Origin: Elusimicrobiaceae bacterium
GTDB lineage: Bacteria; Elusimicrobiota; Elusimicrobia; Elusimicrobiales; Elusimicrobiaceae
Direction: 5' to 3'
Assembly: GCA_045593745.1 (NCBI GenBank)
Contig: JAZNXF010000012.1
Location: forward strand, 21,575 to 85,574
DNA length: 64,000 nucleotides
Under the pieces are notes generated by a model. The model was not told where the DNA came from and did no database searches. It was given only the letters and a program-made list of their open reading frames with translations. The position numbers and the translations under genes are program-made. Positions 3,630 through 59,350 of this stretch are shown here, piece by piece. The first letter of the stretch is position 1; each line of letters begins with the position of its first letter.

Positions 3630-3842
3630 TATAAGTCCCCCTTGGCTAAATTTTAGCATTTTATCAACGAATAAATAAACAACAACTTACCCTCCAAATT
3701 GGGCAAAAATGTGCAGGATTGCGCAAAAGTTTTAGTACAAAGTAGGAAGAAATTATGTAAAATAAAAAAGTAGCAAAAAAATTTATTCTGTTTTTGGAAT
3801 CCTATGAAGAATAGGAGAGGGTTTCGGGTTAAACCGAAAAAC

Positions 3843-4005
3843 GCTCTAGCCGCCAAAGACAACCAGTATAGACACAAAGCGAAAGGACTTCGAACCCTTT
3901 TGCTTTGTGTCGAATGTTTATCGTTTTGCTTTTGAACAAATGATAAATTACGGCTGTTGGTTGTTAGGTTCTGGCTAGAGCACTTGCACCTGACAGCCGT
4001 TTTTT
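3843..4005 (+). ncRNA. Candidate cis-regulatory structured leader RNA (attenuator/riboswitch-like), copy A
   Basis: GCTCTAGCC/GGCTAGAGC outer stem, GACACAAAGC/GCTTTGTGTC hairpin, GAATG (3912), second hairpin, TACGGCTGTT (3949), ACAGCCGT followed by a T-run (3993-4005). The same fold occurs before all four pilin genes. Confidence 0.8.
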
Positions 4006-4052
4006 ATGGGGTTTTGACAGATAAATTGAATTTAACGGTAAAGGAGTAATGT

Positions 4053-4724
4053 ATGCAACATAGAAATACCCGGCGGGGTTTTACGCAACAAGAAAAAGAG
4101 GCCGTTATCTGTTCCCCTTGTGGGGAAAGTGTCGCGCAAGCGACAAAAGAGGGGCAAAATAAGGAAAAATCCTTATGGCCCCTCCTACCCCGCCTAACGG
4201 CGGTACTCCCTCCACAAGGGCGGGAGATGTCCTGGGGTTTTACGCTTATTGAATTACTGGTAGTAGTGTTAATTATTGGTATTTTGGCGGCGGTGGCCCT
4301 GCCGCAGTACCAAAAGGCCGTGGAAAAAAGTAGGATTGCGGAGGTAAAAATAGCATTAGATACTTTGCAAAAAGCAGTAGATCTTTATTTGCTTGAAAAT
4401 GGTTATCCTTCATCGGGTATTGTCTATTTTGTAGGAGAATCCTCTGCAGAAGATGCTACAAATGTCTCGTTGGATTTGGATATTACCAAAAGTATGGTTT
4501 GTTATGCTCCAGAAGATCCTTTTTGTGTAACAGATCACTTTTCTTATGATGCTTACTGCGAACCTTGGGGGTGTATTGTGGGTGCGGGGGATATTGATGT
4601 AAAGAATGCTGAAGAGTATTTGCGTAGTGATTACGACCGATATCGTTTGAGGTCAACAAAAAGCGCAGATACGAATCAATGGGTTAGAGAATGTATAGAT
4701 TGCCCTTCTTATGTAGAATGGTAA
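4053..4724 (+). CDS. Type IV pilin (PilE-like) with extended leader
   Basis: G|[29 protein letters not shown]-methylation motif; AAGGAG RBS. Confidence 0.92.
4111..4227. repeat. Palindromic REP/MITE-like element inserted in frame in the pilin leader
   Basis: Multi-hairpin TTCCCC..GGGGAA / GAGGGGC..GCCCCTC / CTCCCT..AGGG architecture; flanked by the 12-bp direct repeat GGGGTTTTACGC (4075-4086, 4234-4245); related copy at 34475-34577. Confidence 0.75.
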
Positions 4725-4980
4725 GTCAGTCAAATAATTTAAGCAAGTAGGAAATCCCCGATAGAGTCCTTCGGGGATGATCCTTTATTTAAATACTCCC
4801 TTATCCGCCCATAAGGGGCGCACTGTTCCTCAAGGGCGATGGGAACAACGCCACCGCAACAGGGCGGTTGTGTAAAATACCCTAAATTTGGCCTATTAGC
4901 TCTTAAAACAAATACCCCCTGCCAGCTGGACAGGGGGTTACTAACTAATTCGGAGTTTCCAAATTACTCGTTACAAGTAA

Positions 4981-5370
4981 TTATTTCGCCTCGGTGGCCG
5001 CTACTTCAGTATTTTCTTCGGTTGTGGCGGTCGGTTTTTTAAGTTCTTGCAAGCGCGCGGCTTTGCCGGAGAGTTTGGTTAAGTAGTTCAGTTTTGCGCG
5101 GCGTACTTTACCAACTTTAAGCACTTCAATGCTGTCCACGCGGGGGGAGTGAATCGGAAAAATGCGTTCCACGCCCACGCCAAAGGATACTTTGCGTACG
5201 GTAAAGGTTTCCCCAATGCCGGACCCTTTGCGCGCAATGACTACACCGTCAAAGGTTTGTAAGCGTTCGTTGTCACCTTCTACTACTTTTACTTTCACGC
5301 GGACTGTATCGCCCGCTTTAAAAACCGGGATGTTGGTTTTTAAGTTATGTTTAATATCACTAATGTTCAT
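4981..5370 (-). CDS. rplS: 50S ribosomal protein L19
   Basis: [16 protein letters not shown]...[18 protein letters not shown]; follows trmD. Confidence 0.97.
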
Positions 5371-5375
5371 AAATT

Positions 5376-6095
5376 TTACTTCCTCCGAATATTTTTCTTC
5401 GTTCGGACTGTTTTCTTTGGTTGAGAGGCGTTTTCAAGCAAATCAGGCCGAAACTGTTTTGTAATTTCTAGTGATTGTGCATGTTTCCATGCGGCAATCT
5501 CTTTATGGTTTCCGTTTAAAAGCACTTGCGGAACGCGCTTACCGCGCCAAACTTCCGGGCGGGTGTATTGCGGGGCTTCCAACAAACTGCCCTCAAACGA
5601 CTCAGAAGACGTTACGTCTTCCTTCTTAAAAGTTCCCTTTTGAAGACGCGTAATAGCATCAATCATTACGCACGCGGCAAGTTCCCCGCCGGTTAAAATA
5701 TAGTCCCCTAAAGAAACTTCTTCATCCACCTCCGGATAAATCCGGGCGTCAATTCCTTCATAGTGTCCGCACACAATAATGAGGTGGCGTTTTTTGGCAA
5801 AGCGTTTGGCCATTTCCTGGCTAAATACCTGCCCGCGCGGACTGGTTAACACCACGTGCGACGACTTTTTGCGCAGTTTGTTAATGGCTTGGTAGAGCGG
5901 TTCTGCCATCATTAACATCCCGGGCCCGCCGCCGTAGGGGCGGTCGTCAATCGTTTTGTGCTTGTCCGTGGTAAACTCCCGCGGACTTAAGGTGCCCAGT
6001 TTTATTATCCCTGCTTTTCGCGCACGCCCCACAATGCTTTGTGAAAGCGTATTGTCTACTAAATCGCCAAAGGCAGTGATAACGTCAATTTTCAT
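5376..6095 (-). CDS. trmD: tRNA (guanine-N1)-methyltransferase
   Basis: [32 protein letters not shown] motifs. Confidence 0.97.
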
Positions 6096-6328
6096 TCATC
6101 TTCCAGCTTTAAAGTAACTTTTTTGTCTTGGTTAACAGCGGCGGCAGTAAGCACTGTGCGTACTGCTTTAATAATGCAACCGTCTTTTCCAATGATGCGT
6201 CCTTTATCTGCTGTGTCCACCTTGGTGGACAGAAAAACCCGGTTATTCTCCTCAATCGTCTCATTGACTACCACCTTATCCGGCGTGCCGGAGAGCGATT
6301 TTAAGAGCAGGGTGGCTAAATCTTTCAT
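6092..6328 (-). CDS. khpA: KH-domain RNA-binding protein (UPF0109)
   Basis: DKGRIIGKDG KH motif; located between rpsP and trmD. Confidence 0.88.
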   Translation of the reverse strand: MKDLATLLLKSLSGTPDKVVVNETIEENNRVFLSTKVDTADKGRIIGKDGCIIKAVRTVLTAAAVNQDKKVTLKLEDE

Positions 6329-6340
6329 GCGGCCCCCGGG

Positions 6341-6589
6341 TTATTTTGCGCTGGCTTTTTTAATTAAGTTGGCTACTGTTAGCGAGGGCTTGGCGCCTAC
6401 TTTCATCCAGTATTCCACGCGCGGCATGTCCAATTTTACTTGTTCAGCGGCGTTGGGGTTGCAAGGATGGTATTGGCCGAGCACTTCTTTGGCTTCACTG
6501 CCCACGGCGGATTTTTTTTCAATCGCCACTACTCTGTACTGCGGCTGGGCTTTTTTGCCAACCCGTTGTAATCTAATTACTACTGCCAT
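6341..6589 (-). CDS. rpsP: 30S ribosomal protein S16
   Basis: MAVVIRLQRVGKKAQPQYRVV; real start at ATG 6589 after AAGGAG. Confidence 0.95.
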   Translation of the reverse strand: MAVVIRLQRVGKKAQPQYRVVAIEKKSAVGSEAKEVLGQYHPCNPNAAEQVKLDMPRVEYWMKVGAKPSLTVANLIKKASAK

Positions 6590-18878: not shown

Positions 18879-19034
18879 CAAACACCTCGTTGTAGCCCCC
18901 GGCCAAACACCCGGGGGCTATCAAATAAATAAATTGAACTGTTTGTGGAGTGGTTTAAAACGCAGTAGGTGATCATGTGTTTGCCCTGCCTTGTAGGGGC
19001 CGTTTTGCTCCGTAAGATTTAGTATAATATTGCT

Positions 19035-19595: not shown

Positions 19596-19606
19596 TATAA
19601 TAAAAA

Positions 19607-19929
19607 TGGTAGCCAGATAACCGCTCCCGGCTAACTTCAGCGCAGGGGGAGGAACTTCCGGACTCCACAGGGCAGTATGCCACCTGAAAGGGTGGGCTGG
19701 CGTTTTTTCTTTTTTTCGCCAGACGGAAAGTGCCGCAGAAAATAAACCGCCCGCAAGGGTAAGGGTGAAAAGGTGCGGTAAGAGCGCACCGCGCGCAAGG
19801 TAACAAGCGTGGCAGGGTAAACCCCATACGGAGCAAGGCCAAGCCGGTCCACAGGTGCCCGCCTTCGTGACCAAGTAGGCCGCTTAGAGTAATGGTTATC
19901 CACGACAGAATCCGGGGTACCGGCTACCA
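19607..19929 (+). ncRNA. rnpB: RNase P RNA (type A)
   Basis: TGGTAGCC/GGCTACCA P1, GAGGAACTTCCGGACTCC, GGAAAGTGCCGCAGAAAA, GGTAAACCCC, GAGCAAG, ACAGAATCCGG. Confidence 0.93.
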
Positions 19930-19945
19930 CATTTTCTTCTTTTTC

Positions 19946-20260
19946 TTCGTAATTTGGCGTATTTCGTTGTTGCTCACTTGCTCGAATACCTCCGCGCTAA
20001 CGCGCGCGTGCCGCCAGTATACTTCGCAAGTTCGCGCCTAGAACTACGCCAAATTTCTTTGAAAAACCCCCAGCCATTTGAGATGTAAGAATACTCTCTT
20101 TTTTTCGTAATTTGGCGTATTTCGTTCCCCGCATACAAGCTTTGCGGGGCTCCGTGCCTTTGGCACTTCGGTTCACGCTTACTTGCTCGAATCCCTCCGC
20201 GGTGCGAGCCGCACTCCCTTTCTGCGCGCGTGCCGCCAGTACACTGCGCGTTTGTACGCC
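19946..20260. repeat. Two tandem modular palindromic repeats downstream of rnpB
   Basis: TTCGTAATTTGGCGTATTTCGTT at 19946 and 20104; shared ACTTGCTCGAAT and GCGCGCGTGCCGCCAGTA blocks. Confidence 0.75.
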
Positions 20261-20410
20261 TGGCCCCATGTAAAATTAAATTATCCCCATTTTTTCTGAC
20301 TATTTATGGCGGGCTTTTTTTTCTTGTTAATTAGATAATTTTTTATTATACTATAGGTACAATTTGTTCTGTTTTTGGAACCGTTTAAGAAACGGAGTGC
20401 TTGAAAAAGT

Positions 20411-20564
20411 TCTTGTCTAGTCCAAAAATAGCCGACTTAGGTACAGCTGAAAACTATAGATTTGGCTGTGCCGAATGTTTTCCGTATCTGCCAGGCAGAT
20501 ATGGAAAACTACGGCTGTTATGGCTGGGACTCTAGACAAGACCTGTGCTGTATAGGCCGTTTTT
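20411..20564 (+). ncRNA. Candidate structured pilin-leader RNA, copy B
   Basis: TCTTGTCTAG/CTAGACAAGA outer stem, two hairpins separated by GAATG (20473), TACGGCTGTT (20510), GCCGTTTTT (20556). Confidence 0.8.
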
Positions 20565-20639
20565 GTTGGTTTCATAAGCAGAAGAATTGAACATATAGGT
20601 TGGGTGAAAACCCAACGTAAAAATAAGGAGAGTAAACTT

Positions 20640-21335
20640 ATGAACTACAAAAACACCCGGCGGGGAAAAACGCTTCATTTCAATACAGAAAAAAATATGG
20701 GATGTTACCGCTTCCCCCTAGAGGGGGAAGGTGGCCAAAGGCCGGATGAGGGGGAAAGTAATACAAAAGTTTTAGCCATTGGTCAACTAAGGATCCCCCT
20801 CACCTGCCCTACCGGGCATCCGCTCCCTCAAGGGAGAGAAAATGCACGCTCCGGGTTTACGCTTATTGAACTTTTGGTTGTTGTGCTTATTATCGGCATT
20901 TTGGCGGTGGTAGCGTTGCCGCAATACCAAAAAGCTGTCAAAAAGGCACGGGGCACAGAAGTATTAACGGCTCTAGATGCGTATGATAAAGCCATATCAT
21001 CCTATTATTTGACCCATGGTTTTTATGGCGGGGCCAGAGCCGATACATTAGATGTTCAGATGCCAATTTTGAAGCATTTTTTATATGCGTCTGTAGGCGG
21101 AGACAGAACGCCGGACTTTCAAGTAGGTAGCAATTTTCTCCAGGTAGGAACCGGAACATCTACACAGATATTGTTGGTAGAAAAAGGTACTACGTTAGGA
21201 GTATGGGCCGAGTGGGACAAAGGTTCACGGCCTCAGCGTTGGTGTTCGGACAATGGGAAAGATATTTCCAAAGAATGTGCTGCCTATTTTGGCCCCTGTA
21301 CATGGAACAGTATGTACAGGCGTTGCTACTTCTAA
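20640..21335 (+). CDS. Type IV pilin (PilE-like) with extended leader
   Basis: G|[24 protein letters not shown]; start at ATG 20640 after AAGGAG. Confidence 0.92.
   Translation: MNYKNTRRGKTLHFNTEKNMGCYRFPLEGEGGQRPDEGESNTKVLAIGQLRIPLTCPTGHPLPQGRENARSGFTLIELLVVVLIIGILAVVALPQYQKAVKKARGTEVLTALDAYDKAISSYYLTHGFYGGARADTLDVQMPILKHFLYASVGGDRTPDFQVGSNFLQVGTGTSTQILLVEKGTTLGVWAEWDKGSRPQRWCSDNGKDISKECAAYFGPCTWNSMYRRCYF
20711..20838. repeat. Palindromic element in frame in the pilin leader
   Basis: CTTCCCCCT-AG-AGGGGGAAG, TGAGGGGGA/TCCCCCTCA, CTCCCTCAAGGGAG; same architecture as 4111-4227. Confidence 0.7.
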
Positions 21336-21374: not shown

Positions 21375-22799
21375 CTATGCTTTTTGGATGATTAACCATT
21401 GCCACAACGGATACAAGGTTAGCAAACCTATTTTGATGGTTAATAACACTCCTGCTTGTTGCCCGCGGCATACATACACGGCCAGCCCACTGAGTACGCA
21501 GGTTAACGCAATCAACGATAATTTTTTGTATTCATACGGCAGCGTATAATTTTTTTGCGTAAAGCGGAAAAGGGCCAACGCCATCGCCCCATAACTTAAC
21601 GCCACCGCCCAGCCCGCACCCAAAATGCCCAGGCGCGGAACCAGGGTTAGGTTTGTGGTAATACTTACAGCGGCCCCCAGTAGCGTAATCCATAACAAAA
21701 CGCGCGTTTTTTTGGTCATCACCGGCCCCACCATAAAATTGACGTAAAGCCCATAGAAAAAATATCCGGTAAGTACCAGGGGGATGATGTGCAGGCCGCT
21801 CCAATAATTGGGGCTAATTAAGTGGAAATCTCCAAACAAATTACTTTGGATAATGGACGGCATGAGGAAAGACAGCCCCAGCAAAAACCACGTTGCGAAT
21901 GCGGTAAAACAGGTAAGTACGCGCGCAAAGGTTTGTTTGGCATCCGGCTCTTTAGCGTGCGCCAAAAAGAAGGGCCGCCACGCCTGGTCAAACATAGATA
22001 CCAAGAGCATCATAAACACACCAATTTTAAAGTTTGCCTGATAAATGCCCACCTGGTCTAAACCCACCAAATGCACAAGAATGGGTTTGTCAATTACGCT
22101 AATGAGTAAACTGGCCAGGCCAGACGGTACAAACGGCCAAGCGAATTTTAACATGCCGCGTGCCAACTCTTTTTGAAACTGCGGCCTTTTGGCACGCAGT
22201 TCTTTGCATACCACGGGGGAAAGTAACACTAATGAGGTGAGCGAGGCAAAAATGTTTGCCCATAATATAGAGGCAATCCCTTTATGAAGTACCGCAATAA
22301 AAAAGATGTTTCCCAGTACGTTTACGACGATAGATGCCGTGCGCACACCCGCAAAATACCAAGGCCGCCGCTCCAGACGCAGTTTGGTAAAGGGAATCAT
22401 GTTCAGAACGTCTAATAGCAGTATCCATACCGCCAGATGTACTAAATACGCATGTTGTGCCCCAATGCCAATTAGTGCCGCAAACGGTTTTGCTAGTAGC
22501 CACAACAGGGCGGATAAAATAACTCCATTTACTAATACAGCGTAAAAACAATGCTGAAAGACGTCTGTTTTTTGGGCGTGTTCGCTGGCAAAACGCAAGT
22601 AACTTTGGTCCATTCCAAACAGAAAAAGGACGTTTAACAGTGCAATTACGGCAAATGTGGTAGCTATTACGCCATAATCCCCCGGCAGTAAATAATACGT
22701 GTAGAACGGAACTAAACAAAAGTTCAGTAACCGTGCTAGCACGGTAGAAGTGCCGTAGATAAGGGTTTCTTTGCCTAAACGTTTAATACTTGCTGACAT
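21375..22799 (-). CDS. Oligosaccharide flippase (Wzx/MOP family)
   Basis: About 12-14 TM segments; L.KETLIYG.S..L.RLLNF.LVPFYTYYL.P.DYG N-terminus. Confidence 0.88.
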   Translation of the reverse strand: MSASIKRLGKETLIYGTSTVLARLLNFCLVPFYTYYLLPGDYGVIATTFAVIALLNVLFLFGMDQSYLRFASEHAQKTDVFQHCFYAVLVNGVILSALLWLLAKPFAALIGIGAQHAYLVHLAVWILLLDVLNMIPFTKLRLERRPWYFAGVRTASIVVNVLGNIFFIAVLHKGIASILWANIFASLTSLVLLSPVVCKELRAKRPQFQKELARGMLKFAWPFVPSGLASLLISVIDKPILVHLVGLDQVGIYQANFKIGVFMMLLVSMFDQAWRPFFLAHAKEPDAKQTFARVLTCFTAFATWFLLGLSFLMPSIIQSNLFGDFHLISPNYWSGLHIIPLVLTGYFFYGLYVNFMVGPVMTKKTRVLLWITLLGAAVSITTNLTLVPRLGILGAGWAVALSYGAMALALFRFTQKNYTLPYEYKKLSLIALTCVLSGLAVYVCRGQQAGVLLTIKIGLLTLYPLWQWLIIQKA

Positions 22800-34417: not shown

Positions 34418-34474
34418 GAAACCCCTTATTGGACCTAATTGCCCAAAAAGTTGATATGTTAGGTTGGTTTTTTT

Positions 34475-34577
34475 GTCCCCTTTATGGGGAAAATGTCGCG
34501 TAAACGACAAAAAAAGGGGGGACGATGAAAACCTATTTATACCCGGTTGCGCCGTACTTCCCCCGCAAGGGGGGAAG
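34475..34577. repeat. Intergenic copy of the palindromic element found inside pilin A
   Basis: GTCCCCTTTATGGGGAAAATGTCGCGTAAACGACAAAA vs GTTCCCCTTGTGGGGAAAGTGTCGCGCAAGCGACAAAA. Confidence 0.75.
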
Positions 34578-34767
34578 AAAACAATACCAATGGGAAGCAG
34601 CCCATCTTTCAGACAGTATTACCAACAATTTTAAATATTAGTCCCAACATGTAGTTTATCTCTGGAAAAATATACTAAATTTGTTATAATTACAGTGTAA
34701 GTATAATACTTACGACAACTTAATCTGTTTTTGGCACTGTATAAAACCGGACGTATTGGCTACAATA

Positions 34768-34914
34768 CAGGCAATCAACCAAAACAGCCCATTAAAGCAT
34801 ACAGTTAAGGACCTCTAGAACCCTTGATTGTATGCTGAATGCTTGCCGCTTGCGGCGGGTTACGGCTGTTTATGTCGGGGTGTGATTGCCTGCCTGTCAT
34901 AAGGAGCCGTTTTT
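34768..34914 (+). ncRNA. Candidate structured pilin-leader RNA, copy D
   Basis: CAGGCAATCA/TGATTGCCTG outer stem, 15-bp hairpin, GAATG (34837), TACGGCTGTT (34861), AGCCGTTTTT (34905). Confidence 0.8.
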
Positions 34915-34940
34915 ATCAGGCCAAAACAAAGGAGACAATC

Positions 34941-56470: not shown

Positions 56471-56543
56471 TGGACCGGACAGGACTTGAACCTGTGACCT
56501 TCCGCGTGTAAGGCGGACGCTCTACCAACTAAGCTACCGATCC
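56471..56543 (-). tRNA. tRNA-Val (anticodon TAC), CCA not encoded
   Basis: GGATCGG TAGCTTAGTTGGTAGAGC G TCCGC CTTACAC GCGGA AGGTC ACAGG TTCAAGT CCTGT CCGGTCC A. Confidence 0.96.
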
Positions 56544-57192: not shown

Positions 57193-57813
57193 ATGAAGAA
57201 TTTAGAAATAGAATGTAAATTTGATGCCAATGTGCGCGGAGCATTTGTTCGTGCAACACATTTCTTACGTGTCTTAAACCCGGCTATTTCCGCGCGCATT
57301 TTACCCATTCAGGATACATATTTGGACCATATCTCGCGTGATTTATCAAGCCAAAAAATTGCTTTGCGCGTGCGTAATACCGGCGGAAACTGGGAAGCCA
57401 CTTTTAAAACACGTACAGAAATTATTAACGGCAAAGCCGTACGGCGTGAGGAAACCTTACCGCTGGTCCATACAACCACGCTTGCCGAAGCATTAAAAGA
57501 GTTGGCAAGGAAAGGCCGCTGGCAAAAAATAGACGTAACCCAATTAGTACCGCAGTTTGTTATTTCCAACAAACGCAGTGTTTTTAACCTCAGTTACCAA
57601 GGAGCATTATTGGAAATTGCTTTGGATAATTTTGCTATTTTGGTAGCGGGTAGAAAACTTACCAGTAAAGAAATTGAAATAGAATTAAAACGCGGAAATG
57701 AAAAATCATTAGAAAAATTTGTGCAACTTTTTGAAGCGTATACCCATTTAAAACGTGCCAAAATTTCAAAAGTAAAAACGGCAGAATTATTATTACGCGC
57801 GTTTTCAAAATAA
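57193..57813 (+). CDS. CYTH-domain protein
   Basis: EIECKF, DTYLD, ALRVR, EIALD, EIEIELK. Confidence 0.88.
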   Translation: MKNLEIECKFDANVRGAFVRATHFLRVLNPAISARILPIQDTYLDHISRDLSSQKIALRVRNTGGNWEATFKTRTEIINGKAVRREETLPLVHTTTLAEALKELARKGRWQKIDVTQLVPQFVISNKRSVFNLSYQGALLEIALDNFAILVAGRKLTSKEIEIELKRGNEKSLEKFVQLFEAYTHLKRAKISKVKTAELLLRAFSK

Positions 57814-58034: not shown

Positions 58035-58307
58035 ATGGCTGTTAAAAAAACCGTGAAAAAAGTAGCCGCCAAAAAACCGGCTGCTAAAAAAGTAGCAGTG
58101 AAAAAAGCCGCCGTAAAAAAACCGGCAAAAAAAGTAGTAGCCAAAAAAGCATGTGCTAAAAAAGCGTGTGCCAAAAAGGCCTGCGCTAAAAAAGTAGCCG
58201 TAAAGAAAGTTGCCGTAAAAAAAGCCGCTGTAAAAAAAGTTGCTAAAAAAGCGGTAAAAAAAGTTGCCGCCAAAAAACCGGCTAAAAAAGTAGCAAAAAA
58301 GAAATAA
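58035..58307 (+). CDS. Histone H1-like Lys/Ala-rich nucleoid protein
   Basis: xAKKx pentapeptide repeats; AGGAG RBS before ATG 58035. Confidence 0.82.
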   Translation: MAVKKTVKKVAAKKPAAKKVAVKKAAVKKPAKKVVAKKACAKKACAKKACAKKVAVKKVAVKKAAVKKVAKKAVKKVAAKKPAKKVAKKK

Positions 58308-58377: not shown

Positions 58378-58887
58378 TCAGTCCCAATTGCGTGGTAATA
58401 ATTGCTTAATTAGCTCGCACGTTAATTGCCCATGAGGAGCATATTCCTCGTCGTATTGACAGTGACATGTGGGTTGTCCATTGATTATGTCACATTCAAA
58501 ATAAGTATCCACCGGGTCTTCTGCTAATGCCACTTTCCAATACATTTCATTATTTTCAGATACGGCCCAAGCTACATAACGAAAATAATCATCGTCACAA
58601 TGAAATTGGCCTTCTGACATGCGGCATGATGTATGGGGAACAAGGTTTGGTAGGGGGTTATCTGTGGGGTTTGTTGAAGCCCATTTGTCTGTGTCTTGAG
58701 CGAGGATATCTAGCACCATTGCTTTTTCTACACTATTTATAAATGCCATGGGCCTAGCCGTTAACCGTGCTTTCCATACGGCCTTTTGATACTGTGGTAA
58801 CGCCACCGCCGCCAAGATACCGATAATTAACACCACTACCAACAACTCTATAAGCGTAAAACCCCGCCGGGTACTATTTATTGTCAT
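58378..58887 (-). CDS. Type IV pilin (PilE-like)
   Basis: MTINSTRRG|[24 protein letters not shown]; GGAGG RBS. Confidence 0.92.
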
Positions 58888-58922: not shown

Positions 58923-59070
58923 AAAAACGGCTATAATGTCGCCTGGGAGTATCAGCAACCAAACGCCAAACAGCCGTAGTTCCGCGCAAAACGGAACATT
59001 AAACAGAAAATATCTCCGGAGCAACCCTTCGGTATTTTCTGTCTTAACGACTGTTTTGGGGCTGATACTC
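58923..59070 (-). ncRNA. Candidate structured pilin-leader RNA, copy C
   Basis: On the minus strand: GAGTATCAGC/GCTGATACTC outer stem, hairpin, TAATG, hairpin, CTACGGCTGTTT, TAGCCGTTTTT. Confidence 0.8.
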
Positions 59071-59350
59071 GTTTTAATTGTCTAAAACTTGCCTGCTAAC
59101 GCAGGAACCCAAAACAGAATAAATTTTTTATTACCTTTTTATTCTACATAATTTCTGTTTCTTTTAATAGGTATTTGGGAAAAAACGTAAGTACAAAACA
59201 AAACTTGACAAAACTAACAAAATTTGCTAACTTAAATACACAAGGCAATCAAACAAGCCGCAACCCACCTTTCAAAAGCACATTTTTGCGGCATCCAAAA
59301 CAAAAAAATCCCGCCGGATAACCGGCAGGATACAAAATGAATGTAGTATC

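Follow-up and report, generated by a model that had tools for sequence, protein, structure and literature searches.

In-frame palindromic repeats are known in bacteria, with the Rickettsia palindromic elements (RPEs) as the main example; these are translated, in-frame palindromic repeats that fall into several families (Ogata et al., 2000, as summarised in PMC10969869). Here we describe a comparable case from a window of 64,000 nucleotides (the whole stretch analysed: positions 21,575 to 85,574 of contig JAZNXF010000012.1, Elusimicrobiaceae bacterium assembly GCA_045593745.1), in which a 147-bp palindromic element interrupts the leader of a predicted type IV prepilin gene (Table 1; coordinates are window positions). 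Like the RPEs, the element belongs among palindromes of ~100–150 bp that occur in many copies and several families, are predicted to be read through in frame and lack their own transposase. RPEs, however, are found in many unrelated genes and remain part of the mature protein, where they lie at surface positions that tolerate them. In the present case, from a different phylum, nearly all translated copies occupy one kind of place in type IV pilins, their cleavable class III signal peptide, at or beside the codons of the peptidase site, and are presumably lost from the product. The likeness lies in the mode of working, and we claim no membership in RPE sequence families, for which Rfam has no models. 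We consider it probable that a non-autonomous palindromic repeat inserted at the peptidase-site codons, that it is read through and that its peptide is removed with the leader, which would make the leader both target and safe harbour. A full-text literature search, whose coverage did not extend to all journals, retrieved no description of repeats concentrated in a cleavable signal peptide at the codons of its processing site. It is this target logic, a cleavable class III signal peptide entered at its processing-site codons, that appears to be new.

Other known systems share some of these features. Bacterial MITEs (miniature transposable elements with inverted repeats), such as Correia/CREE, ERIC, Nezha and MITEAba12, are likewise small and non-coding, with imperfect terminal inverted repeats of ~20 bp, a flanking direct repeat and possible in-frame fusions. 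Unlike them, the element has a long direct repeat (10–12 bp) and variable filler before the inverted repeats, and families with different ends share one site; no parent insertion sequence with matching ends was seen in the loci that we fetched (numbered L006 to L095 below), and no dedicated genome search was made. Repetitive extragenic palindromes (REPs) are short hairpin units with a GTAG head, extragenic by definition, without target duplication and mobilised by RAYT (TnpA_REP) proteins. The element recalls REP, BIME and REPIN sequences in its mosaic of GC-rich hairpin modules, its inverted pairs forming a long hairpin and its nested single hairpins, and several modules are GTAG-headed as in REPs (ATGTAGTYATCTGT..., GTAGGTCAGGCAYTGCCTGAC, GTAGGCCGGAT...). 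The window copy reads GGCCGTTATCTGT and is not GTAG-headed, and most copies, unlike REPs, were found inside open reading frames (ORFs). Inteins and homing introns offer a functional analogy only: they too are selfish insertions in a conserved coding motif, neutralised by removal after expression, but here removal would fall to the host prepilin peptidase acting on its normal substrate, with neither homing endonuclease nor splicing chemistry. Type IVa prepilin leaders have 5–10 residues, and the long-leader type IVb and Tad prepilins have family-specific leaders of 15–30 residues. The latter resemble the present case in that the peptidase tolerates leaders well above type IVa length; the leaders here differ in reaching 47–202 residues, in consisting of repeat DNA and in belonging to type IVa-like GFTLIELL pilins.

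The leader encoded by ORF 4053-4724 ends in ...GREMSWG↓FTLIELL (the arrow marks the cleavage site), and the cleavage/methylation motif and hydrophobic alpha1-N segment start at residue 62, the native MQHRNTRRG leader being separated from the motif by the insertion. Pfam PF07963 (N_methyl) matches residues 62-83 and not the N-terminus (22.3 bits against a cut-off of 21.2). Apart from its motif, this is not the usual short, positively charged leader of ~5–30 residues, since it has 62 residues here and 47–202 in homologues. The nearest homologues are pilins of Elusimicrobiaceae metagenome-assembled genomes (MAGs), and an exact-protein database look-up of the window pilin returned no record. Downstream, positions 4933-6556, which by our reading of the translations hold rplS, trmD and neighbours, share 85% DNA identity with the uncultured Elusimicrobium MAG contigs L020 and L037. 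Sequencing runs with related sequence are ruminant gut metagenomes.

A preliminary description of the window, made from its letters alone, had reported a perfect 12-bp duplication around a multi-hairpin element, and the sequence bears this out: the + strand holds GGGGTTTTACGC at just two places, 4075-4086 and 4234-4245, with a spacing of 159 bp (53 codons). Its reverse complement occurs once, at 58854, within an uninterrupted paralogous pilin. We rejected the 12-mer as evidence in its own right because such repeats are not rare within the window, which holds ~20 clusters of 12-bp direct repeats within 250 nt against a mean of 2.0 in Markov-simulated windows. The insertion is proven not by the 12-mer alone but by comparison with the paralogue, with orthologues and with an empty allele. 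The paralogue had been named earlier by its position 58887, which is indeed the ATG of the minus-strand gene 58378-58887. Positions 4067-4086 equal 58854-58873 (100%) and 4234-4321 match 58778-58865 at 86%, so that both flanks fall on one continuous paralogue stretch, 58778-58873. Because they align contiguously, the difference between the two pilins is exactly the element plus one copy of the 12-mer, and removing one unit restores the canonical leader, as had been proposed.

Empty and filled sites also coexist beyond the window. A pilin gene convergent with oadB-oadA-oadG-birA is found in three states among its syntenic orthologues. The L055/L056 orthologue is empty (ATG ACG TAC AAA CAT ACC CGG CGG GGT TTC ACG CTT ATT GAG); that of L058 is filled after RRGYT (class 1), with flanks 81% identical to L055; and that of L057 is filled but lacks the upstream GFT (class 2), with flanks 83.6% identical to L055. 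A 229-nt contig from a sheep-gut metagenome matches 3937-4074 with 2 mismatches in 138 positions, skips exactly 159 bp (12 bases being ambiguous) and resumes at 4234-4319 with 11 mismatches in 86, all listed ones synonymous. It represents an empty allele of the window locus or a recombinant of it. The filled junction is present, at 97% identity, in a contig from goat gut. The search of reads and strains for empty alleles that the preliminary description had proposed thus succeeded, in the sheep-gut contig and in L055/L056. What the empty allele shows is polymorphism, not the reversible excision that had also been envisaged. The 12-mer is present just once in each of these empty sites: the paralogue, the syntenic orthologue and the metagenomic allele.

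Flanking repeats of similar length accompany other insertions, in independent events and in different families, as scored by reading the sequences by eye. Against 12/12 in the window, the agreement is 11/12 in L020, 10/10 in L024, 11/12 in L010 (GGGTTTAYCCTG), 10/12 in L045 and 9/10 in L065, and L035 holds three GGTTTCACGC copies, two of which extend to 12/12. Target duplications are thus not confined to the window copy, and repeats of 10–12 bp occur in at least 6 events, parted from the inverted repeats by filler.

The insert has a GC content of 54%, against 43.6% for the window, and folds into several hairpins (–79.3 kcal/mol; z = –3.84 against shuffles). According to RNAalifold on 19 aligned copies, TTATCTGTCCCCCTTGTGGGG and CTCCCTCCACAAGGGAGGGAGATG form a terminal stem of ~20 bp, which gives the element imperfect terminal inverted repeats as in MITEs; alignment columns 2-22 pair with 109-128, with one compensatory T>C / A>G change, and the ends read CATCTGTCCCCCTTGTGG. 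Three inner hairpins (H2–H4) lie between the inverted-repeat arms, each of which is itself a small hairpin (H1, H5). A model of local hairpins pairs 88.7% of cells, against 50–60% when the partners are slid. The palindromic nature of the element is solid. Selection for structure is not established by covariation, which we rejected as proof because the 3 double-change pairs within family A, the family of the window element, do not exceed the shuffle mean of 3.5, the stems being nearly invariant. The element has no coding capacity of its own, and Rfam, searched at the gathering threshold over the whole window or at E≤5 over 3650-4950, returned no family for the element or the 5′ leader; its only matches in the window, RNase P RNA and tRNA-Val, lie elsewhere.

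With a covariance model made from 19 element copies we located three copies in the window, no more, and dozens in related MAGs, in agreement with the earlier proposal of a non-autonomous repeat. The copy at 4105-4229 scores 147.7 bits. Of the other two, one occupies the leader of a second pilin and belongs to a family B, which has the five-hairpin layout of family A with different stems and here follows the pseudo-site NTRRG(K)T; Pfam N_methyl lies at residues 69-93 of this ORF (70-94 of a query beginning one codon upstream of the ATG). The leader repeat of the second pilin (20640-20864) was absent from the preliminary description. The remaining copy is diverged and intergenic, and a copy with much the same flanks lies at 4727-4849 of L059. 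Leader copies thus make up two of the three copies in the window, and two of its four pilin genes have filled leaders. Contig depth over the element is several-fold above that of the rest of the gene in four gut metagenomes, and many short metagenome contigs bear the element in other contexts. The element is a member of a repeat superfamily abundant in rumen Elusimicrobiaceae.

Two scans asked where copies lie. A frame-blind 18-mer from the element, scanned against one genome per species, hit 29 sites in nine Elusimicrobiaceae or Elusimicrobium MAGs: 22 in pilin leaders whose ORF is open into G↓FTLIELL and 7 elsewhere, one of these being the N-terminus of another gene. The 52-residue element peptide, scanned against 1.84 billion representative proteins, gave 95 matches, of which 88 belong to pilins and lie N-terminal to the cleavage motif (leader length 47–202 aa, median 60.5); the remainder are one pilin with GFKLIELL, 2 spurious low-complexity proteins and 4 fragments. 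The arrangement recurs in ~90 distinct pilin families of rumen Elusimicrobiaceae. Unrelated repeats use the same place. Among bystander pilins in the fetched loci, ~8 of 18 leaders are filled by other repeat families and ~10 are empty, and a metagenome scan with the leader word ACCCGGCGGGGTTTYACGC returned leaders in both states, 14 of them empty and 5 filled, the latter likewise by other families. These other repeats are found at the same GFT site, in some cases in tandem with 3–4 GFT copies; in L024, L035, L036 and L041, two or three different elements are stacked, each parted from the next by a further GFT copy. Together, the 22 of 29 DNA matches, the 88 of 95 protein matches and the other families at the same site support the proposal that the cleavable leader is a preferred target and safe harbour for the element.

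The reading frame is maintained through all 23 leader copies that we compared. Every one has a Shine-Dalgarno-like motif before the upstream ATG and no in-frame stop over the 51–176 codons from that ATG to G↓F, whereas the other two frames hold means of 4.7 and 3.6 stops. The 3′ half of the element is in the same frame in every leader copy, the 5′ half in three different frames (VVICPPCGESVAVATKEG, LFVPLVGKTSRERQKEG, NLSPLWGKCRVSDKRG), and loop substitutions in leader copies eliminate stops of the consensus. On this comparative test the insertion is in frame with its host ORF, as in RPEs. Such a pattern is the mark of a DNA element whose sole coding constraint is to "stay open", and not of a conserved peptide. 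We accordingly rejected a protein-level function of the leader peptide, suggested by its CxxC-like CPPCGE, because the 5′ half is read in three frames and the leader by itself matches no Pfam family. Translation probably starts at ATG 4053 and continues through the element. Prepilin peptidase cuts at G↓F and discards the leader, and by analogy the long leader is presumably removed in this way.

From these observations we propose the following sequence of events. The element would enter a pilin gene at its Gly-Phe-Thr codons, the target being about GGNTTYACNC, and ~12 bp of the target would be duplicated. The downstream copy would retain an intact G↓FTLIELL, the upstream copy becoming a dead pseudo-site, and the element with its duplication, 159 bp or 53 codons long, is free of stops in the frame used. 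Ribosomes starting at the ATG at 4053, with its Shine-Dalgarno sequence, would read through to give a prepilin with a 62-residue leader; prepilin peptidase would then cut at G↓F and the whole leader would be discarded. The mature pilin would be identical to the product of the uninterrupted gene, and the insertion would therefore be nearly cost-free. A conserved target word present in many copies, combined with removal at the protein level, could make the leader both preferred target and safe harbour. This combination would explain why about half of the sampled pilin genes carry some repeat, why different families stack in tandem between GFT copies, and why copies are later remodelled, by nested hairpins, by indels that restore the frame and by changes that delete or mutate the upstream GFT copy.

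If this proposal is right, the locus is a clean natural case in which proteolytic processing by the host renders a selfish element harmless, and prepilin peptidase and pilin targeting tolerate leaders of 50–200 arbitrary residues. It would also account for the hundreds of Elusimicrobial "pilins" in which gene callers and Pfam put the N-terminal methylation motif 50–200 residues into the protein. The 159-bp unit with its 12-bp flanks could serve as a marker for strain-level presence/absence typing in rumen metagenomes.

Several observations weigh against insertion of a translated, target-duplicating and otherwise neutral repeat. The direct repeat does not abut the inverted repeat: 10–31 nt of A-rich filler lie on the left and 5–10 nt on the right, a layout unusual among MITEs that move by cut-and-paste. 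The upstream RRG(F)T copy is kept in just 19 of 88 family-A pilins and missing in 69; either the duplication is often lost or insertion need not produce it. No 12-bp duplication is seen at non-pilin copies or at nested single-hairpin inserts. The orientation of leader copies is uniform, yet the reverse strand, too, is open in 19 of 19 copies. Stop-codon avoidance is thereby rejected as the sole cause, and uniform orientation could mean descent from few events and not repeated insertion. The reverse-strand open frame of the element would encode a hydrophobic stretch. A scan of 643 kb of loci for HUH and YxxNP motifs found no transposase or RAYT-like ORF, a result that is uninformative for a single-copy gene. 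Orthologous copies are conserved far above their flanks, which is not expected of a purely neutral passenger. The sheep run with the empty allele is of uncertain library type (listed as 'RNA?'), and synthesis and cleavage of the long prepilin are argued from comparison of sequences and from general pilin biology; two candidate RNA runs hold only fragmentary contigs of related strains, with no bearing on transcription through the element.

The fate of the upstream copy can be followed a little further. Copies with and without the upstream GFT are intermixed inside element subfamilies, for which repeated deletion of the upstream copy would be the simplest reading. Where it is kept, it is often mutated at the Phe codon (GGGGAAAAACGC, GGTGAAACGC). 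At 20664-20675 and in L010, L021, L033 and L053, the Phe codon of the left GFT copy appears to have been swapped for its own reverse complement (GGGGTTTTACGC to GGGGAAAAACGC, GGTTTCACGC to GGTGAAACGC), giving RRG(K/E/N)T; the change could have come about by a small inversion, or because a decoy cleavage site is selected against.

Elements of the IS200/IS605 type insert 3′ of a fixed tetra- or pentanucleotide such as TTAC, carry subterminal hairpins and leave no duplication. Leader copies follow TTYAC, with H1 ~19 nt downstream, and elements that themselves end in GGNTTTAC may insert 3′ of TTYAC in an IS200/IS605- or RAYT-like mode. An IS608-like model proper (insertion 3′ of TTAC without duplication) is attractive for the 19-nt spacing to H1, but it finds no support in the non-pilin copies, which are not preceded by TTYAC, or in the repeats, which in several events run 2–4 nt past TTAC. 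REP-like units of GTAGG, a hairpin and CAAT occur inside pilin leaders of L028, L090, L095 and L006 (GTAGGTCAGGCAYTGCCTGACAAT), and another REP-like unit, GTAGGCCGGATGTAAATCCGGC, lies in the 5′ untranslated region (5′UTR) of L059; its first 11 nt match the E. coli REP head. These units give hints of a RAYT-type system in these genomes.

The 5′ part of the element, which was not used for retrieval, has a mean pairwise identity of 81.6%, against 75.1% for the adjacent alpha1 coding DNA and 45% at its third positions, although the alpha1 helix is nearly invariant in protein. Because the element is more alike than the alpha1 DNA beside it, the host genes had long diverged by the time the copies entered them or were homogenised. 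Between the window and its orthologue in L020, 2 of 159 positions differ in repeat and element (98.7% identity), against 61% identity in the 5′UTR, 74% in the first leader codons and 83% in alpha1 coding DNA, and the C-terminal domains are not alignable. L043 and L045 show a like pattern, with 98.1% identity in the element against 87%, 76% and 52% in the 5′UTR, the alpha1 coding DNA and the C-terminal part, respectively. Recent re-insertion, concerted evolution among copies and a function at the nucleotide level are all possible sources of such conservation. The same two comparisons (for L020, over 4331-4724) pair near-identical leaders with C-terminal globular domains that are unalignable or ~52% identical in DNA, which suggests fast divergence or replacement of the exposed pilin domain.

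A possible but unlikely history is that one or few ancient insertions occurred, that the filled leader spread by expansion of the pilin family and gene conversion, and that the 12-bp repeat is an old duplication preserved by chance or by conversion. The pilins do form a large paralogous family whose near-identical leader and alpha1 sequences could support recombination, and the sheep-gut allele, near-identical upstream (2/138) and diverged downstream (11/86), fits a breakpoint at the repeat. L020 and L037 carry an element at the orthologous locus, which makes that insertion older than at least those species splits, and the upstream repeat is missing in most family-A copies. Yet the element copies are far more alike than adjacent synonymous sites, and an ancient insertion should by now be saturated, barring conversion restricted to the element. 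The site is occupied by several unrelated families, each with its own flanking repeat of 10–12 bp, and tandem arrays contain repeated GFT copies. Syntenic orthologues are found empty, in class 1 and in class 2, and copies of the two classes are intermixed in element subfamilies, all of which argues against this history.

Rather improbable in our judgement is a domesticated module, in which the leader element would be under nucleotide-level selection as an intra-ORF RNA structure or as a site for a protein or recombinase, controlling expression, paralogue choice or the exchange of leaders and cassettes. The conservation just described speaks for it: orthologous copies are 98–99% identical, against 61–87% in the 5′UTR and 76–83% in alpha1 DNA, which places the element above a nearly invariant protein-coding neighbour. 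The single orientation despite an open reverse strand points the same way, as do the five-hairpin architecture common to family A, family B and the intergenic copy despite different stem sequences, and the different C-terminal domains behind near-identical leaders (window and L020). Recent transposition or concerted evolution would, however, also give high similarity among copies, and family-A covariation stays at control level. About half of the bystander pilins, the paralogue in the window and the syntenic orthologue of a related pilin do without the element, and the mixed content of the site, with unrelated families, nested inserts and tandem stacks, resembles accretion and not design. The unexpected conservation of the element relative to its flanks nonetheless raises the possibility that a gut bacterium has co-opted it for the regulation or reshuffling of its very large pilin repertoire.

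A bolder combination, which we hold to be improbable, is that the leader is a dedicated integration site: an orientation-specific machinery would recognise the GGNTTYAC(GC) codons of the peptidase site and insert hairpin elements with a ~12-bp duplication, and the residents, whose nucleotide-level conservation lies well above that of synonymous sites, would now work as RNA or DNA modules within the ORF, setting how dozens of pilin paralogues are expressed or recombine with one another. If true, this would be a new kind of pilin variation system in which removal of the peptide by the host signal peptidase plays the role that splicing has for introns and inteins.

It is very improbable that translation starts at the internal ATG at 4227, giving MSWG↓F, with the element in the 5′UTR and the upstream frame incidental, a possibility that the preliminary description had itself raised. 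An in-frame ATG, preceded by the purine-rich GGGAGGGAG, does stand 3–5 codons before G↓F in 18 of 23 leader copies. This Shine-Dalgarno-like run, however, abuts the ATG and is sequestered in hairpin H5, whereas the upstream start has a well-spaced Shine-Dalgarno sequence and an open frame in all 23 copies, through three frames in the 5′ half and with stop-removing substitutions. In 5 of 23 copies the internal ATG is ATA, and these have no other in-frame start after the element. The GATG is the end of the inverted repeat and is kept in non-coding copies too. A three-residue uncharged leader is atypical for a prepilin. On these comparative grounds we reject the internal start, and with it a non-coding element. 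An assembly artefact or decaying pseudogene, for which nothing specific speaks beyond a possible origin of the window in a metagenome-assembled genome, can be set aside, since nine independent MAGs, JGI and ENA metagenome contigs and Logan contigs all have the same architecture, and the ORF is intact with a C-terminal domain conserved in homologues.

Table 1. Positions of the interrupted pilin gene, its insertion and the other features compared in the window.
Feature	Position	Strand	Basis and remarks
Promoter-like box of pilin loci, AAAATTTATTCTGTTTTTGGAATCC... (AAWTTTRTTCTGTTTTTGGAAC)	3778-3807	+	Repeat search; putative function
Conserved structured 5′ leader RNA of pilin genes, outside the insert	3850-4005	+	Alignment and RNAalifold, six upstream regions
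Shine-Dalgarno AGGAG (4042-4046) and start codon ATG (4053-4055)	4042-4055	+	Sequence; AGGAG 6 nt upstream of ATG
Prepilin ORF, 223 aa	4053-4724	+	ORF list; 62-aa leader; G↓F 4236-4241; mature pilin 4239-4721
Left copy of 12-bp direct repeat, GGGGTTTTACGC	4075-4086	+	Sequence; encodes pseudo-site (R)GFT(Q)
Inserted element, family A, 147 bp	4087-4233	+	Fold; RNAalifold of 19 copies; covariance-model match 4105-4229
A-rich left filler of insert	4087-4106	+	
Left terminal inverted repeat with hairpin H1 (CCCC 4114-4117 / GGGG 4122-4125)	4107-4125	+	
Hairpin H2 (GTCGCG...CGCGAC)	4131-4144	+	
Hairpin H3 (GAGGGGC...GCCCCTC), inner hairpin 4160-4175	4149-4184	+	
Hairpin H4 (CCGCC TAAC GGCGG)	4190-4203	+	
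H5 / right inverted repeat	4206-4228	+	
In-frame internal ATG, GGGAGATG, would give MSWG↓F	4227-4229	+	End of inverted repeat (CATCT / AGATG); probably not a start
Tail of insert	4229-4233	+	
Right copy of 12-bp direct repeat	4234-4245	+	Sequence; functional G↓FT(L) codons of prepilin peptidase site
Second pilin, filled 72-aa leader	20640-21335	+	Covariance-model match 20710-20841, 30.1 bits, E ~1e-6
Degenerate left repeat of second pilin, GGAAAAACGCTT	20664-20675	+	
Family-B five-hairpin element in leader of second pilin	20676-20852	+	
Right repeat of second pilin, GGGTTTACGCTT	20853-20864	+	
Third copy, diverged, intergenic	34469-34580	+	blastn; covariance model 65.7 bits; ~360 nt upstream of third pilin ATG 34941
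Uninterrupted paralogous pilin, MTINSTRRG↓FTLIELL	58378-58887	–	Empty-site reference in window; Pfam N_methyl residues 6-30

The pilin loci have further features in common outside the insert. The promoter-like box recurs at 18929-18958, 20359-20388, 34715-34744 and 57714-57743, upstream of pilin leaders and of two other loci, and does not fit a scan for the sigma-70 consensus. A structured leader of ~150–190 nt precedes every pilin gene of the window, at 3850-4005 (+), 20425-20570 (+), 34770-34915 (+) and 58925-59075 (–), and is also found at 440-590 of L055 and 3800-3950 of L057. Its invariant motifs are CAAAAYAGYC ... GAAYGYT ... TACGGCTGTT ... RGCCGTTTTT. RNAalifold on six sequences gives three stems with compensatory changes in 14 of 30 pairs. 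The last stem (3950-3999) with its U-run is terminator-like, and ACGGCTGTT could alternatively pair with the upstream AACAGCC, in an attenuator- or riboswitch-like layout. We regard this leader as a candidate new cis-regulatory RNA of Elusimicrobial pilin genes.

Two further repeat-like regions lie near the filled genes. Just past the pilin stop, 4780-4880 holds a second cluster of small GC-rich hairpins (CCCTTATCCGCCCATAAGGGG, GTTCC...GGAAC, CGCC...GGCGG), which the element model misses. Metagenome depth indicates a single copy of this cluster, which could be either a 3′ structure or a repeat of another type. Between the RNase P RNA gene (19605-19935) and the promoter of the second pilin, 19940-20280 contains two to three imperfect direct repeats ~160–220 nt apart (for example 19946/20104 and 20002/20224).

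Farther along the window, 35900-56000 forms an island of mobile-element and defence flavour beside tRNA-Val (56471-56543), with two tRNA-3′-end-like repeats nearby (54960 and 56031). It encodes DUF5681 and DUF2924 proteins, a SNF2-family helicase, an N6/N4 DNA methylase, a type III restriction-like helicase-endonuclease, a serine recombinase and a Fic protein. Finally, a small ORF at 58035-58307 (+) encodes a Lys/Ala-rich, histone-H1-like repeat protein (AKKxAVKK... units of 5 and 9 residues) and gives rise to the window's strongest tandem repeats.

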